The notes under the pieces: generated by a model | Databases searched by the model: none | Told to the model about the DNA's origin: nothing | Seen by the model: only the letters and a program-made list of their open reading frames with translations | Program-made: the position numbers and the translations under genes | From: Escherichia phage T4 | Length of the DNA stretch: 64,000 nucleotides | Sequence record: MZ375356.1 | Direction: 5' to 3' (one strand) | In this document: piece by piece, positions 28,701-62,493 of the stretch | Layout of the letters: the number at the start of each line of letters is the position of its first letter | How positions within the stretch are numbered: position 1 is the first letter of the stretch

Positions 28701-28716
28701 AGGGGCCGAAGCCCCT
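28701..28716 (-). terminator. hairpin immediately downstream of the hoc remnant (minus strand)
   Basis: Minus strand reads aggggc-TTCG-gcccct followed by TTCTTCATTTTG. Confidence 0.55.
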
Positions 28717-29271
28717 TATGATAATGATACTTCATTAGAAGTAACGCTTAGTGCATCATAATCTGTCGCGGTTACTTGGGCTACGCATTTAATTCTTTTT
28801 ACTCCACTTGTAGTTGGAGTATAGCTAAATGTAGAGTTAGTTTCTCCACCAACTTGTGAATCATCTACATACCACTGATACGTAGCAGATGCTCCATCAG
28901 GTTGAGAAGCTAAGGCAGCAGTAAATTGAACTGGGGTTCCAATCACTCCAGCCGCAGGACTAGCAGGAGTTACGGCTAAGGTAGTCGTCTGTGTCTTATT
29001 TTTAACTGTGATAGTTGTTGTCGCTTCAGCCGTTTCCGGGCCTCCTTCAGAAAGTGTATTTGTTGCAACTACTTTAATAGTCTTTTGACCGGCAGGTCCT
29101 TTTAGCATAACTAAAAGTTGCTTCAGCTCCATCTTGTGGAACATTATCTACGCTCCAAGCATATGTAATAGTTCCGCCTCCAGTTTGACCACTGGGTGTA
29201 GCAGTAAACTGCTTAGTTTCATCAATAACCCCTGTAGGTGTTTTAGGAGTTATATCAACTGTAAAAGTCAT
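28716..29271 (-). pseudogene. hoc: outer capsid protein Hoc, frame-disrupted and lacking the C-terminal half
   Basis: Ig-like N-terminal ORF (29074-29271, MTFTVDITPKTPTG...) and a second Ig-like ORF (28716-29144) in another frame; 556 nt covers about 185 codons, versus about 376 aa for T4 Hoc. Confidence 0.8.
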
Positions 29272-29280
29272 AAGTTATCC

Positions 29281-29961
29281 TTATTTTAATGTTACGAAAG
29301 AAGAGTTGCGTGTTTCACGAATTAAAACTGATCCATCGCGATTAATGTAATAAATTAAGCTAAATAAAGTTTGGTGTGCTGACGCATGTTCAAAACTAGT
29401 TGGGTGAGATTTCCAATCAGGAGTTTCAGCAATCCATTGATAAATCCACCAAGGAACAGTACAGAATCCTGGATTTTTTCCAATCAGTTGAAGATTCGGA
29501 CTAAAGTTTTCCGGAAGAGTAAATACAGACGGCTTTTCAGATTCAATAATCTCAGCTACAGCCTGTTCGAATTTTTCTTCAACAAAAGGAGTATCTTCAA
29601 TCAAAACATCGGTATTTTCAGGAATTTTATCCGTTTCTACTACTTCAATTTTAATGTCAGATTTAATCGGAGAATCAATCAGAAGTGCTGCTTCTGGATT
29701 GACTTCTTCATCGTCATATTTTAATCCCTCTGCGGCATCAGCAGCATCAATTAAGTCTTTAATAGATAACCCATCAGTCTCTGGCATAGGTTCACTAGCG
29801 AGCTTCTGGAGGGCTTCTTCAATATCAACAACGATATTATCAAAAGATTTATTCTTTTTGACCTTTATACCAAACTGTTCAGCATATTCAGCTAATTTAG
29901 CTTTAGCTTCTTTGTTATCATCAAGAGCCTTCAGCTCTGCAATATAATCTTTATCTATCAT
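29281..29961 (-). CDS. inh: acidic 226-aa protein at the T4 inh position (inhibitor of prohead protease)
   Basis: Position between hoc and segE; identity rests on synteny and partial recall. Confidence 0.55.
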   Translation of the reverse strand: MIDKDYIAELKALDDNKEAKAKLAEYAEQFGIKVKKNKSFDNIVVDIEEALQKLASEPMPETDGLSIKDLIDAADAAEGLKYDDEEVNPEAALLIDSPIKSDIKIEVVETDKIPENTDVLIEDTPFVEEKFEQAVAEIIESEKPSVFTLPENFSPNLQLIGKNPGFCTVPWWIYQWIAETPDWKSHPTSFEHASAHQTLFSLIYYINRDGSVLIRETRNSSFVTLK

Positions 29962-29974
29962 AATATTTCCTCAG

Positions 29975-29982
29975 TATAAATA
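29975..29982 (+). promoter_or_regulatory. T4 late promoter (TATAAATA) for segE
   Basis: Exact TATAAATA 28 nt upstream of the segE ATG. Confidence 0.6.
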
Positions 29983-30009
29983 TAGATTATTTATTACTCG
30001 GAAAATAGT

Positions 30010-30538
30010 ATGTACCACTTTGTATATGAAACAACAAATCTAATAAATGGTAAAAAGTATATAGGAAAGCACTCTACTGATGACTTGAATGATGGTTACC
30101 TTGGTTCCGGTAAGGCAATTCAGCAGGCTATAAAGAAATATGGTGAAAACAATTTCTCTAGAACAATACTAAAAGAGTTTAAAACTTCCGAAGAAGCGTA
30201 CATGTATGAAGAAGAAATTATAACTCCTGAACTAATAAAAAGCAAAAATTATAATATGAAACCTGGTGGAATTGGTGGAATTGGTGGAATTGTTATGACT
30301 ACAGATGTTATAGCAAAGATGAAAGAATCTTCCGCTAAAAGATTTGAAAACTCACCGGGCACGGTATTAGGTAAAACTTGTTACTAATGGAACTAAAAAT
30401 ATTTTTATTAAACCTGGAGAACTTGTTCCAGAAGGATTTGTAAAAGGGATGGTTCATCCTAATAGAAAGTCCAGAAAAGGATGTAAAGTCAAACCGACTA
30501 CCACAGGAACTTTTTGGGTCAATAATGGCGCAAAATAA
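30010..30538 (+). pseudogene. segE: GIY-YIG homing endonuclease SegE, frame-disrupted
   Basis: 125-aa ORF with GIY-YIG motif (KKYIGKHSTD...GYLGSG) stops at 30387; the C-terminal continuation (TNGTKNIFIKPGELVPEGFVKG...) runs in the +1 frame to 30538; 529 nt is not a multiple of 3. Confidence 0.75.
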
Positions 30539-30629
30539 ATTAATACAACCAGACGGTATTATTCCCGACGGATTTATTAAAGGTCGTCTCATGAAAAGAG
30601 ATTCTAAAGGCAAATTTAGTAAGGCAATT

Positions 30630-32138
30630 ATGGATATTAAAGTACATTTTCACGACTTCAGTCATGTACGCATCGATTGTGAAGAGAGCACGTTCCACGA
30701 ATTAAGAGATTTCTTTTCGTTTGAGGCCGATGGATATAGATTTAATCCTCGCTTCAGATATGGCAACTGGGATGGACGAATCCGTCTTTTAGATTATAAT
30801 CGTCTTCTTCCATTCGGCTTAGTCGGGCAAATTAAAAAATTCTGTGATAATTTTGGCTATAAAGCCTGGATTGACCCACAAATTAACGAAAAAGAAGAAT
30901 TATCAAGAAAAGATTTTGATGAATGGCTTTCTAAATTAGAAATCTATTCAGGAAATAAAAGAATTGAACCGCACTGGTATCAAAAAGATGCAGTGTTCGA
31001 AGGATTAGTTAATCGTCGTAGAATTCTTAATCTTCCAACATCTGCAGGTAAATCTTTAATTCAAGCTTTGCTTGCGCGATATTATTTGGAAAATTATGAA
31101 GGTAAAATTCTTATCATTGTTCCAACAACTGCTCTGACAACTCAGATGGCTGATGACTTCGTCGACTATCGTTTATTCAGCCATGCAATGATAAAGAAAA
31201 TTGGTGGCGGAGCATCAAAAGATGATAAATATAAAAATGATGCACCAGTCGTTGTTGGTACATGGCAAACTGTAGTAAAACAACCGAAAGAATGGTTCTC
31301 ACAGTTTGGAATGATGATGAATGATGAATGCCATCTTGCTACAGGAAAAAGTATTTCATCTATCATATCAGGTTTAAATAACTGCATGTTCAAATTCGGT
31401 TTGTCTGGTTCATTACGTGATGGCAAAGCCAATATCATGCAGTATGTTGGAATGTTTGGTGAAATATTTAAACCAGTAACGACTTCTAAATTAATGGAAG
31501 ATGGACAAGTAACTGAGCTAAAAATTAATAGTATTTTTCTTCGCTATCCCGATGAGTTCACTACTAAATTAAAGGGAAAAACTTACCAAGAAGAAATAAA
31601 AATTATTACTGGGCTTAGTAAAAGAAATAAATGGATCGCTAAATTAGCTATTAAGCTTGCGCAAAAAGATGAAAACGCTTTTGTCATGTTTAAACATGTA
31701 TCGCATGGTAAAGCTATTTTCGATTTAATTAAAAATGAATACGATAAAGTTTATTACGTATCAGGGGAAGTTGATACCGAAACCCGCAATATAATGAAAA
31801 CCTTAGCTGAAAATGGTAAAGGAATAATTATAGTAGCTAGTTATGGTGTATTTTCTACTGGTATTTCAGTTAAAAATCTGCATCACGTTGTTTTAGCGCA
31901 CGGTGTTAAATCAAAAATCATTGTATTACAAACAATCGGTCGTGTATTACGTAAGCATGGTTCTAAGACAATAGCAACAGTCTGGGACCTCATAGATGAC
32001 GCAGGCGTCAAGCCAAAATCTGCTAATACGAAAAAGAAATATGTTCATTTGAACTATCTTTTAAAACACGGCATTGATCGTATTCAGCGCTACGCAGATG
32101 AAAAATTTAATTACGTAATGAAAACAGTTAATTTATAA
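30630..32138 (+). CDS. uvsW: UvsW helicase (SF2, recombination/repair)
   Basis: 502 aa from MDIKVHFHDF; Walker A (PTSAGKS) and DEAH-like (MNDECH) motifs; the ORF is open 35 codons further upstream (30525). Confidence 0.92.
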   Translation: MDIKVHFHDFSHVRIDCEESTFHELRDFFSFEADGYRFNPRFRYGNWDGRIRLLDYNRLLPFGLVGQIKKFCDNFGYKAWIDPQINEKEELSRKDFDEWLSKLEIYSGNKRIEPHWYQKDAVFEGLVNRRRILNLPTSAGKSLIQALLARYYLENYEGKILIIVPTTALTTQMADDFVDYRLFSHAMIKKIGGGASKDDKYKNDAPVVVGTWQTVVKQPKEWFSQFGMMMNDECHLATGKSISSIISGLNNCMFKFGLSGSLRDGKANIMQYVGMFGEIFKPVTTSKLMEDGQVTELKINSIFLRYPDEFTTKLKGKTYQEEIKIITGLSKRNKWIAKLAIKLAQKDENAFVMFKHVSHGKAIFDLIKNEYDKVYYVSGEVDTETRNIMKTLAENGKGIIIVASYGVFSTGISVKNLHHVVLAHGVKSKIIVLQTIGRVLRKHGSKTIATVWDLIDDAGVKPKSANTKKKYVHLNYLLKHGIDRIQRYADEKFNYVMKTVNL

Positions 32139-32140
32139 GG

Positions 32141-32152
32141 GCTTCGGCCCTT
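32141..32152 (+). other. short hairpin (gggc-TTCG-gccc) between uvsW and uvsW.1
   Basis: Inverted repeat read directly. Confidence 0.45.
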
Positions 32153-32394
32153 TGGAGAAAAAGATGTTACTAGAATTTAAACAATTTCTTTATGAAGCTT
32201 CTATTGATGAATTTATGGGTAAAATTGCCTCTTGTCAAACATTAGAAGGTTTAGAAGAACTTGAAGCTTATTATAAGAAAAGAGTCAAAGAAACTGAATT
32301 AAAAGATACTGATGACATCTCTGTGAGAGATGCTTTGGCAGGAAAAAGAGCTGAATTAGAAGATTCAGACGATGAAGTAGAAGAAAGCTTTTAA
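32152..32394 (+). CDS. uvsW.1: UvsW.1-like small acidic protein
   Basis: 80-aa ORF directly after uvsW; the start may be the internal Met at 32164. Confidence 0.7.
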   Translation: MEKKMLLEFKQFLYEASIDEFMGKIASCQTLEGLEELEAYYKKRVKETELKDTDDISVRDALAGKRAELEDSDDEVEESF

Positions 32395-33296: not shown

Positions 33297-33335
33297 TGTT
33301 ATTGGTTGTTATTGGATGTTATTGGATGTTATTGG
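33297..33335. repeat. four tandem 10-bp repeats (t/a)TGTTATTGG in the uvsY leader
   Basis: Direct reading: ttgttattgg ttgttattgg atgttattgg atgttattgg. Confidence 0.9.
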
Positions 33336-33349
33336 ATGGACTTAGATTC

Positions 33350-36853: not shown

Positions 36854-38619
36854 AAAAGCCACAAGAAATGCAAACGATGCGTAGAAAAGTTATTTCAGAT
36901 AATAAACCAACACAGGAAGCGGCTAAATCCGCTTCTAATACTTTATCTGGGCTTAATGACATATCTACGAAATTGGATGATGCTCAAGCTGCTTCTGAAT
37001 TAATAGCTCAAACTGTCGAAGAAAAATCGAATGAAATAATTGGAGCAATTGACAATGTAGAAAGCGCAGTGAGTGATACTACTGCCGGTTCTGAGTTAAT
37101 TGCTGAAACTGTCGAAATTGGCAACAATATTAATAAAGAAATCGGTGAATCGCTCGGAAGCAAATTAGATAAATTAACAAGTTTACTAGAGCAAAAAATC
37201 CAGACAGCTGGAATTCAACAGACTGGAACTAGTTTAGCTACGGTTGAAAGCGCTATTCCTGTTAAAGTCGTTGAGGATGATACTGCTGAATCTGTGGGTC
37301 CTTTATTACCAGCTCCTGAAGCAGTTAATAATGATCCTGACGCTGATTTTTTCCCTACCCCTCAGCCAGTTGAGCCAAAGCAAGAATCACCAGAAGAAAA
37401 ACAGAAAAAAGAAGCATTTAACTTAAAATTATCTCAAGCTTTAGATAAATTAACGAAGACTGTTGATTTTGGATTTAAAAAATCCATTTCAATTACTGAT
37501 AAAATATCAAGCATGCTATTTAAGTACACCGTCAGTGCTGCTATTGAAGCTGCTAAAATGACTGCAATGATATTGGCTGTTGTTGTTGGAATAGACCTTT
37601 TGATGATTCACTTTAAATACTGGTCAGATAAATTTTCAAAAGCCTGGGATTTGTTTAGTACAGACTTTACCAAATTCTCTAGCGAAACCGGAACTTGGGG
37701 TCCTTTATTACAGAGCATCTTTGATTCTATTGATAAAATTAAACAACTTTGGGAAGCGGGAGATTGGGGTGGATTGACAGTAGCTATTGTTGAAGGGCTT
37801 GGAAAGGTTCTTTTTAATTTAGGTGAACTTATTCAATTAGGTATGGCTAAATTATCTGCAGCAATTCTTCGAGTCATTCCTGGTATGAAGGATACTGCTG
37901 ATGAAGTAGAAGGAAGAGCATTAGAAAATTTCCAAAATTCTACTGGAGCATCTCTCAATAAAGAAGACCAAGAAAAAGTAGCAAATTATCAAGATAAACG
38001 AATGAATGGAGACCTTGGCCCAATAGCAGAAGGACTAGACAAAATCTCTAACTGGAAAACTCGTGCATCTAACTGGATTCGTGGTGTAGATAATAAAGAA
38101 GCGCTGACTACCGACGAAGAGCGTGCGGCAGAAGAAGAAAAATTAAAGCAACTTTCACCGGAAGAAAGAAAAAATGCTTTAATGAAGGCTAATGAAGCTC
38201 GTGCTGCGATGATTCGTTTTGAAAAATATGCCGATTCAGCTGATATGAGTAAAGACTCAACGGTTAAATCAGTTGAAGCTGCCTATGAAGACCTTAAAAA
38301 ACGGATGGATGACCCGGATAATAATTCACCGGCAGTTAAAAAAGAACTTGCTGCTAGATTTTCTAAAATTGATGCTACTTATCAAGAGCTCAAGAAAAAT
38401 CAGCCTAATGCCAAACCTGAAACTTCTGCTAAATCACCAGAAGCGAAACAAGTCCAGGTGATTGAAAAGAACAAAGCACAGCAAGCTCCTGTTCAACAAG
38501 CATCTCCTTCGATCAATAATACTAATAATGTTATTAAGAAAAATACTGTCGTTCATAATATGACACCTGTAACGAGCACGACTGCTCCTGGTGTATTTGA
38601 TGCGACTGGAGTTAATTAA
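36850..38619 (+). CDS. 29: tail length tape-measure / hub protein gp29
   Basis: 589-aa ORF at the T4 gp29 position. Confidence 0.9.
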   Translation: MKKPQEMQTMRRKVISDNKPTQEAAKSASNTLSGLNDISTKLDDAQAASELIAQTVEEKSNEIIGAIDNVESAVSDTTAGSELIAETVEIGNNINKEIGESLGSKLDKLTSLLEQKIQTAGIQQTGTSLATVESAIPVKVVEDDTAESVGPLLPAPEAVNNDPDADFFPTPQPVEPKQESPEEKQKKEAFNLKLSQALDKLTKTVDFGFKKSISITDKISSMLFKYTVSAAIEAAKMTAMILAVVVGIDLLMIHFKYWSDKFSKAWDLFSTDFTKFSSETGTWGPLLQSIFDSIDKIKQLWEAGDWGGLTVAIVEGLGKVLFNLGELIQLGMAKLSAAILRVIPGMKDTADEVEGRALENFQNSTGASLNKEDQEKVANYQDKRMNGDLGPIAEGLDKISNWKTRASNWIRGVDNKEALTTDEERAAEEEKLKQLSPEERKNALMKANEARAAMIRFEKYADSADMSKDSTVKSVEAAYEDLKKRMDDPDNNSPAVKKELAARFSKIDATYQELKKNQPNAKPETSAKSPEAKQVQVIEKNKAQQAPVQQASPSINNTNNVIKKNTVVHNMTPVTSTTAPGVFDATGVN

Positions 38620-45786: not shown

Positions 45787-45851
45787 AGGAACACGTAATA
45801 TTTCACTCGCGTGATCGCAGTGGTGAGCGAGATCGTCAATAACAAATTACG

Positions 45852-46097
45852 TTATTTCTCTTTTGCTTTTTTGAACAACTCTTCTTTTGAAGAATCATGA
45901 CTACACATCAGTACTTCTGAGAAAGCACCAGGAAAAAGAGCATTCAAATTAAATTGACGATTTAATAGAGCGTCAATAGAATCACCCAATGCTGTAACAG
46001 CAACAAAATTATAATCTTCTTTTAATTTGTTAATTACACAGAGCATCTTTATATGGAGACAAGTAACGAATAAAATCCGAACGATTGTATTTTTCAA
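45852..46097 (-). CDS. hypothetical 81-codon ORF with a non-ATG (TTG) start; may be spurious or an alternate-frame ORF
   Basis: Overlaps the tail of a longer open frame (46030-46272) in another phase. Confidence 0.3.
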   Translation of the reverse strand: MKNTIVRILFVTCLHIKMLCVINKLKEDYNFVAVTALGDSIDALLNRQFNLNALFPGAFSEVLMCSHDSSKEELFKKAKEK

Positions 46098-46272
46098 TTA
46101 ACTTGACGCCAAGTTCTTCATCACAGTTAAAGAGTTTACCAGGAGAAATAAATTTCTCATCTTGGATCATTTTTAAAATATGTTCTAACGGAAGATTATA
46201 TTTCTGAGCAAAATAAGGAAGGCCTGATTGCCAGCTTAAACATACTCCATCAATATCAGTTAATAGTAGGCT

Positions 46273-61485: not shown

Positions 61486-62493
61486 CATTATGTTCAGATA
61501 AGGTCGTTAATCTTACCCCGGAATTATATCCAGCTGCATGTCACCATGCAGAGCAGACTATATCTCCAACTTGTTAAAGCAAGTTGTCTATCGTTTCGAG
61601 TCACTTGACCCTACTCCCCAAAGGGATAGTCGTTAGGCATTTATGTAGAACCAATTCCATTTATCAGATTTTACACGATAAGTAACTAATCCAGACGAAA
61701 TTTTAAAATGTCTAGCTGCATCTGCTGCACAATCAAAAATAACCCCATCACATGAAATCTTTTTAATATTACTAGGCTTTTTACCTTTCATCTTTTCTGA
61801 TATTTTAGATTTAGTTATGTCTGAATGCTTATGATTAAAGAATGAATTATTTTCACCTGAACGATTTCTGCATTTACTACAAGTATAAGCAGAAGTTTGT
61901 ATGCGAACACCGCACTTACAAAACTTATGGGTTTCTGGATTCCAACGCCCGTTTTTACTTCCGGGTTTACTGTAAAGAGCTTTCCGACCATCAGGTCCAA
62001 GTTTAAGCATCTTAGCTTTAACAGTTTCAGAACGTTTCTTAATAATTTCTTCTTTTAATGGATGCGTAGAACATGTATCACCAAACGTTGCATCAATATT
62101 GTATCCATTAATTTTAGAAAGCTCTTTAATCCAAAAATTTTCTCGTTCAATAATCAAATCTTTCTCATATGGAATTTCTTCCAAAATAGAACATAAACAC
62201 ATTACCATGTTTGTTAAAAGACCTCTGAAGTTTTATAGAAGAATGGCATCCTTTTTCTAAATCTTTAAAATGCCTCTTCCATCTCTTTTCAAAATCTTTA
62301 GCACTTCCTACATATACTTTATTGTTTAAAGTATTTTTAATCTGATAAATTCCGCTTTTCATAAATACCTCTTTAAATATAGAAGTATTTATTAAAGGGC
62401 AGTCCTACAATTTAGCACGGGATTGTCTACTAGAGAGGTTCCCCGTTTAGATAGATTACAAGTATAAGTCACCTTATACTCAGGCCTCAATTA
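61486..62493 (-). mobile_element. group I self-splicing intron in td (1008 nt here) carrying I-TevI
   Basis: Minus strand: exon ...CTTGGGT | TAATTGAGGCCTGAGTATAAGGTGAC... to ...ACATAATG | CTACCG; the 5' sequence is recognised as the td intron. Confidence 0.9.
61633..62362 (-). pseudogene. I-TevI: GIY-YIG homing endonuclease I-TevI, frame-disrupted
   Basis: N-terminal ORF MKSGIYQIKNTLNNKVYVGSAKDFEKRWKRH...NKHGNVF then a frame change; the C-terminal ORF carries the zinc finger CKCGVRIQTSAYTCSKC and DNA-binding domain; 730 nt is not a multiple of 3. Confidence 0.8.

Follow-up and report, generated by a model that had tools for sequence, protein, structure and literature searches.

The segE locus of the analysed phage DNA is very probably a known gene that became a pseudogene as mutations built up in a T4 mutant lineage of laboratory origin, and the twin repeat at its 3' end is the normal internal repeat of the SegE protein. 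The DNA is a stretch of 64,000 nucleotides from Escherichia phage T4 (MZ375356.1), referred to below as the window. Position, sequence and domain content all identify the locus as T4 segE. A megablast search with positions 29900-30800 identified the region as phage T4, with T4 and its close relatives as matches, and the window is 99.6-99.8% identical to positions 81494-146076 of the T4 reference genome (NC_000866), save for a deletion of about 570 bp within hoc. In the reference, segE (112057-112674) encodes 205 aa in one frame, its neighbours are inh and uvsW, and its stop codon lies 2 nt before the uvsW ATG (112677). The window locus is collinear with this gene, that is, free-standing, located in the inh-uvsW gap and oriented as uvsW, and homologues from three other genera sit in the same slot. 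The gene, its place beside uvsW and the start of UvsW are all already established, and the disrupted allele is already present in GenBank in the record of clone T4_7t1.

Table 1. Coordinates of the segE locus, its lesions and neighbouring features in the window, with small indels found elsewhere (positions are those of the window; T4 positions are those of the reference)
Feature	Position	Strand	Evidence
Late-promoter box TATAAATA (T4 consensus), 28 nt before the segE ATG	29975..29982	+	exact match
segE fragment 1: truncated 125-aa ORF, GIY-YIG catalytic domain and linker	30010..30387	+	ORF list, Pfam, T4 alignment
In-frame 3-bp deletion in the YYN motif, NYYNM to NYNM	30250..30256	+	alignments
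9-bp tandem repeat TGGTGGAAT, 3.2 copies, one more than the reference	30264..30292	+	Tandem Repeats Finder, alignment
Repeat copy 1 (residues 116-145 of the wild type, TVLGKTCYTNGTKNIFIKPGELVPEGFVKG), interrupted by deletion 1	30361..30448	+	alignments
2-bp deletion 1: T4 112423-112424, TGTTATACT to TGTTACT	junction 30381/30382	+	alignment
segE fragment 2, +1 frame, wild-type SegE residues 124-173, ends at a TAA made by deletion 2	30383..30538	+	alignment
Repeat copy 2 (residues 162-191 of the wild type, TTTGTFWVNNGAINKLIQPDGIIPDGFIKG), interrupted by deletion 2	30497..30584	+	alignments
2-bp deletion 2: T4 112576-112577, GCAATAAAT to GCAAAAT	junction 30532/30533	+	alignment
segE fragment 3, encoding wild-type residues 175-205 and shifted into the uvsW frame	30534..30626	+	ORF list, alignment
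2-bp deletion 3: T4 112671-112672, GGCATAATTATG to GGCAATTATG; segE TAA stop removed	junction 30626/30627	+	alignment
uvsW, intact, 503 codons, native ATG	30630..32138	+	PDB match, T4 annotation
Small indels elsewhere in the window	25448 segD; 29106 hoc; 32859 uvsY.-1; 45839-46262 30.2; 47503 30.7		
Small indels elsewhere in the window, continued	47963/48011 30.8; 51511/51518 cd.3; 51657 cd.4; 56813 I-TevIII; 62195 I-TevI; 63330 frd		

The lesions were read from a base-by-base difference list and from a three-way alignment in which the window was set against reference T4 and the best match. Exactly five changes separate segE of the window from the reference: an in-frame 3-bp deletion, a 9-bp tandem duplication and three 2-bp deletions (Table 1). 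The extra copy of the 9-bp unit adds Gly-Gly-Ile to the protein (GGIGGI to GGIGGIGGI). Deletion 1 shifts the reading frame and thereby brings a premature TAA in frame, so that the ORF starting at ATG 30010 ends after 125 codons ('...ggt aaa act tgt tac TAA', stop at 30385-30387). The +1 frame from 30383 encodes TNGTKNIFIKPGELVPEGFVKGMVHPNRKSRKGCKVKPTTTGTFWVNNGAK and runs into a TAA at 30536-30538; like deletion 1, deletion 2 brings this stop into frame, 150 nt further on. The frame of the third fragment is opened by ATG 30525, which is out of frame in the wild type. After the first two deletions the last segE piece is shifted by -4 and thus falls into the uvsW frame, and deletion 3 takes away the stop codon that would have separated it from uvsW. 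Since the net length change is zero (-3 +9 -2 -2 -2), the start codons of segE and uvsW are 620 nt apart in the window and in the wild type alike. Inspection of 29400-30900, with an ORF list and translation of the three forward frames, bore out the first-pass annotation, which had described segE as frame-disrupted with a stop at 30387 and a C-terminal continuation in the +1 frame to 30538. An uninterrupted ORF of about 205 aa that joins the catalytic domain to the twin-repeat region is missing from the window, with both stops lying in between. Lacking a continuous ORF, the locus is a segE pseudogene and not a functional member of its family. To judge from its sequence, fragment 2, which has no start codon of its own, is untranslated pseudogene sequence.

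We then compared the disrupted region with other phage records. Using a 321-nt query that spans the three 2-bp deletions (30340-30660), 158 phage records were matched, one of which is identical while the other 157 are 6 nt longer. The sole identical record is OL964745.1, titled 'Mutant Escherichia phage T4 clone T4_7t1', which is annotated with a 369-nt 'GIY-YIG nuclease' CDS and a 1614-nt helicase CDS. Clone T4_3t3 (OL964735.1), deposited earlier in the same series, carries an intact 618-bp segE. In addition to their identity over 30340-30660, the window and T4_7t1 have the internal hoc deletion and many small deletions in common. In contrast to the window, T4_7t1 is without the 9-bp duplication and has another 3-bp deletion in the same YYN motif (NYYM, versus NYNM in the window), and the window has about 25 further indel sites at which the two differ. 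As the two genomes share many indels and each has private ones, they are sibling clones of one mutated lineage, and the different 3-bp deletions in the YYN motif are independent hits in a TA-rich stretch, TATTATAATAT. Many differences between the window and NC_000866 are adjacent-base swaps or compensating +/-1 pairs common to T4_3t3; being shared in this way, they reflect reference errors or strain differences. An exact-pattern scan of IMG/VR for the deletion junctions found none, and the wild-type control pattern was likewise not found there. Our literature search did not recover the study or method behind the 'Mutant T4 clone' series OL964735-OL964745; a preprint that uses OL964735 as T4 reference is silent on mutants.

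The two similar peptides at the 3' end of segE are homologous. Copies 1 and 2 gave an ungapped local alignment of 30 aa with a BLOSUM62 score of 65, which none of 5000 shuffles reached (20.6 +/- 4.2, maximum 42), and at the DNA level they match at 35 of 52 aligned positions. In this respect the first-pass annotation, which had noted a frame open from 30525 into uvsW with a similar peptide just before ATG 30630, was correct. In wild-type SegE, both copies lie within one frame. A protein-homologue search with the C-terminal 94 aa of SegE returned no matches; a tblastn search of phage records with the same piece was used instead, and 183 records encode the region as a single continuous piece. Both copies are kept in one frame in Salmonella phage STP4-a (Gelderlandvirus), Escherichia phage G5211 (Krischvirus) and Shigella phage ESh27 (Mosigvirus). 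In these homologues, the invariant key positions of copy 1 are G, P-x-G-F and G; those of copy 2 are G, W-x-N-N-G, N-K, P-x-G and G. The copies are diverged from each other and conserved across genera, so the duplication is old and not local to this genome; on these alignments the two peptides are copies of an ancient intragenic repeat that is part of the normal SegE protein. For the STP4-a homologue, which is annotated with 136 aa (575-985 of the compared piece), we observed a 211-codon ORF from a GTG at 350 (350-985); it has a complete GIY-YIG N-terminus, and the RefSeq start was probably called too late.

The first-pass annotation had instead seen in the region a tandem, frame-staggered duplication of a C-terminal element of SegE, which would leave the 3' end of segE and its relation to the uvsW start ambiguous; expression by recoding might be added to this view. 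We consider this exceedingly improbable. In its favour, the peptides share real homology and occupy different frames of the window, but the wild type has both copies in one frame, and two 2-bp deletions explain the stagger base for base. Alignment with the reference segE-uvsW region returned an intact SegE in one frame with the repeat as part of the normal protein, the very outcome that the first-pass annotation had named as refuting its reading. A recent tandem duplication would show high DNA identity between the copies and relatives without the second one, whereas the copies match at the modest level given above, are conserved across genera and are both present in all examined homologues. 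Programmed recoding would be expected to leave the frame split conserved in relatives. However, 157 of the 158 records and the diverged homologues encode the region in one frame, which leaves nothing there for recoding to act on, and since relatives are without the split, the window locus is not a recoding site. Neither the 3' end of segE nor the start of uvsW is ambiguous: in the reference and in those 157 records SegE has 205 aa and ends 2 nt before the uvsW ATG, and the N-terminus of UvsW is fixed by structures, as described below. That is, the disrupted frame of segE stands, while the duplication and the ambiguous segE-uvsW boundary find no support in the reference alignment, the homologues or the structures.

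By sequence, the twin repeat has no named counterpart. Pfam offered no named family for it, and a profile search against the PDB returned no solved structure that matches the repeat. We had at first assumed a NUMOD3 module, which Pfam did not support; a weak NUMOD3 hit (E=0.0049) occurred in one of the four aligned homologues (member and residues unspecified), with none reported for T4 SegE or for either repeat-bearing fragment of the window. When 70 kb of T4, including segC, segD, segG, I-TevI and mobE, was translated in six frames and scanned for the motif, the repeat was located only in SegE. As no Pfam family is named, a DNA-binding role of the twin repeat is suggested by its position in a GIY-YIG homing endonuclease.

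Downstream of the lesions, uvsW is intact. In the third frame, ATG 30525 begins MAQNKLIQPDGIIPDGFIKGRLMKRDSKGKFSKAI and no stop follows up to the uvsW ATG at 30630, which yields an ORF of 537 codons that includes LIQPDGIIPDGFIKGRLMKRDSKGKFSKAI. Residues 36-537 of this long ORF align to residues 1-502 of the chain of PDB entry 2OCA with a single difference (K versus R), and 1RIF aligns to the N-terminal part of UvsW, likewise from chain residue 1. Since both chains begin with MDIKV, which corresponds to ATG 30630, the start of UvsW is not ambiguous. In duplex calculations with the 3' end of 16S rRNA, the native UAAGG Shine-Dalgarno sequence was found to be kept before 30630 with a spacer that is 2 nt shorter (6 to 4 by the counting of the tool), while ATG 30525 has no Shine-Dalgarno sequence in reach, the nearest AGGA being 15 nt away. 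We infer that translation of UvsW still begins at its native ATG, 30630; the 35-codon extension from ATG 30525 is a by-product of deletion 3 that probably goes unused. In the reference, a single 587-aa uvsW is annotated (112677-114440), and the reference differs from the window here by small indels; in the stretch 32136-32394, uvsW of the window ends at 32138 and is followed by a separate ORF of 80 codons, uvsW.1. The single 587-aa gene in NC_000866 presumably stems from a known sequencing error in the reference, reported along with the structures of UvsW and UvsW.1.

One might alternatively see a gain of function here, in which translation starts at ATG 30525 and produces a 537-aa UvsW with an N-terminal extension of 35 residues containing most of SegE repeat 2. 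The frame is indeed open from 30525 into uvsW, and the automated GenBank annotation of T4_7t1 has the corresponding 1614-nt CDS. But gene callers default to the longest ORF, a Shine-Dalgarno sequence at usable distance is present before 30630 and not before 30525, and the extension exists only through the deletion of a stop codon in a mutagenised line. We therefore rate such a gain of function as very unlikely. If ATG 30525 were used, for which we see a slim chance, UvsW would carry an N-terminal extension that includes the last 31 SegE codons (most of repeat 2), an accidental domain fusion.

The deletions may also have altered uvsW transcription. According to Edgell et al. (2010, PMC2988022), the segE promoter lies in the non-coding region upstream of the ORF. 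The consensus late-promoter box at this place in the window (Table 1) could give rise to transcripts that would run through segE into uvsW. A second, late-promoter-like box, AATAAATA, lies within the segE codons A-I-N-K (T4 112575-112582), 102 nt upstream of the uvsW ATG. The same box is found at the same place in STP4-a (886 of the compared piece), and ESh27 has an exact TATAAATA at the homologous codons (874). From its motif and position, AATAAATA is a candidate for the uvsW late promoter that is said to be embedded in segE. In the window, deletion 2 destroys this box (30529-30540). If AATAAATA is the embedded promoter, its loss would mean that late uvsW transcription starts from TATAAATA upstream of segE, on which it probably depends in the window. 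Around uvsW, the lesions change three things: the proximity of the segE stop to the uvsW start is lost, the spacer between Shine-Dalgarno sequence and AUG is 2 nt shorter, and the conserved late-promoter-like box within segE is destroyed.

As for the segE product itself, the 125-aa ORF retains a recognizable catalytic domain. Pfam assigned it to PF19835, SegE_GIY-YIG (37.7 bits, cut-off 25; E=2.9e-9), and to PF01541, GIY-YIG (23.8 bits, cut-off 22.6; E=5.5e-5). The YYN motif, which is invariant across the alignment of four homologues, has lost one residue in the window. In a profile search against the PDB, a weak match to the I-TevI catalytic domain 1LN0 (E=0.2) placed YYN opposite 'NGYN' of I-TevI. 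In GIY-YIG homing endonucleases the catalytic domain is N-terminal and the DNA-binding modules are C-terminal (PMC1564403; PMC2330249), and SegE homing is stated to depend on the gene being intact (Kadyrov et al. 1997, as cited in PMC2330249). Only the N-terminal fragment of 125 aa, which alone possesses a start codon together with the late promoter TATAAATA ahead of it, could be made from the window allele, with the catalytic domain and a damaged YYN motif and without the C-terminal repeats. Fragments 2 and 3 would not be translated as SegE, and the only way in which fragment 3 might be read is as a uvsW leader. As the C-terminal region of GIY-YIG homing endonucleases is their DNA-binding part, site-specific cleavage and homing should be lost, and segE of the window would be dead.

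The origin of the lesions was addressed by analysing all small indels of the window. Compared with T4_3t3, 34 were found, of which 23 are exact 2-bp deletions. Essential coding sequence makes up 33.5 kb (52% of the window), and none of the 27 frameshifting indels falls into it (binomial p=2.7e-9). The sole indel in an essential gene is an in-frame 3-bp deletion at 38320 in gene 29 (baseplate hub/tail-length). Read errors would ignore whether a gene is essential, so the indels are genuine mutations that passed selection. A sequencing or assembly artefact, with systematic read errors at TA-rich sites behind the 2-bp gaps and an intact segE in the real phage, would fit the small size of all gaps and their AT-rich contexts, and the only other record with the gaps, T4_7t1, is probably from the same laboratory and pipeline. 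However, in addition to the avoidance of essential genes, T4_3t3 of the same series is without the segE gaps, and the window and T4_7t1 differ at many such sites, which is unexpected for errors driven by sequence context. We judge an artefact to be highly improbable.

The deletions have a very pure signature. Among the 23 deletions of 2 bp, 22 touch a 5'-TA-3' step (30% expected; p=6e-11), including each of the three in segE, and 13 can be expressed as loss of TA or AT. The same kind of deletion recurs in about 15 further dispensable genes, where its density is about 1 per kb of dispensable coding sequence, and substitutions are very few. It could be argued that segE simply decayed in a wild T4-like phage, since the homing cycle includes a phase of degeneration. 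Genes of this class are dispensable and known to degenerate, and T4 itself has, by annotation, a defective I-TevIII. Natural relatives of T4, however, differ mostly by substitutions (2-5%), unlike the 2-bp TpA deletions seen here; indels aside, the window closely matches laboratory clones of T4, and the allele was seen only in a record titled as a mutant T4 clone. Natural decay is thus highly unlikely, and the titles in GenBank together with the mutation pattern lead us to read the lesions as the outcome of laboratory mutagenesis.

The specificity for 2 bp at TpA suggests a mutagen that targets TpA steps. Treatment with psoralen and UVA forms crosslinks between thymines across 5'-TpA; if both base pairs of such a crosslink were lost, the outcome would, hypothetically, be exactly a 2-bp TpA lesion. 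Interstrand crosslinking by psoralen plus UVA is our leading candidate, although we put it forward tentatively, with somewhat less than even confidence. An intercalating frameshift mutagen is the alternative; such mutagens also prefer pyrimidine-purine steps and classically cause +/-1 changes in T4. A literature search on proflavine, acridine, psoralen and trimethylpsoralen mutagenesis of T4 yielded nothing relevant and no documented agent for this signature.

Several other loci of the window were inspected in parallel. The hoc gene has an internal deletion of about 570 bp, with its junction at 28722-28729 (28716-29271), and the additional 2-bp deletion listed in Table 1, so that two short ORFs remain. 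The internal deletion is common to T4_7t1 and absent from T4_3t3 and the wild type. I-TevI in the td intron (62094-62195) carries two 3-bp deletions and one 2-bp deletion, and the flanking td exons are untouched. One 2-bp deletion each was found in segD and I-TevIII, with gene 24 untouched. Upstream of uvsY, near the annotated oriF, a 10-bp tandem array of TGTTATTGGA (33297-33338) has 4.2 copies in the window, which makes it 20 bp longer than in reference T4 and 10 bp shorter than in T4_7t1. That is, the copy number of this array varies between sibling clones.

Taken together, the window is best read as a heavily mutagenised T4, and the broken segD, hoc, 30.2-30.8, cd.3, cd.4, I-TevI, I-TevIII and frd have the same cause as the broken segE. 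On such genomes, a 125-aa 'GIY-YIG nuclease' and a 537-aa 'UvsW' reported by gene callers are artefacts of a mutagenised pseudogene. The genes that tolerate frameshifts provide a dispensability map for this part of T4. The biological weight of the segE allele is small, as a known dispensable gene was inactivated by small deletions in a mutagenised laboratory phage; the curious features are the lineage's signature of 2-bp deletions at TpA and the accidental in-frame fusion to uvsW.

Wild-type T4 segE (NP_049795, 205 aa; Kadyrov et al. 1997; Edgell et al. 2010, PMC2988022) is a free-standing GIY-YIG homing endonuclease gene, with which the window locus shares position, neighbours, the upstream late promoter and the N-terminal GIY-YIG domain, at about 98% identity of the gene DNA. 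Unlike T4 segE, its ORF is spread over three frames by the three 2-bp deletions, its stop codon is gone, YYN is one residue short and GGI has been added. Like modular GIY-YIG enzymes such as I-TevI (catalytic domain, linker and C-terminal DNA-binding modules or NUMODs; Dunin-Horkawicz et al. 2006, PMC1564403), SegE has an N-terminal GIY-YIG domain that is followed by short repeated C-terminal modules, but its twin W-x-N-N-G...P-x-G-F-x-K-G repeat matches no Pfam family or structure by sequence. In the window, segE resembles I-TevIII, annotated as defective in T4, in being a homing endonuclease gene without function beside an intact host gene. The defect of I-TevIII, however, is a natural deletion fixed in T4, whereas the segE lesions described here were seen only in a laboratory mutant lineage.
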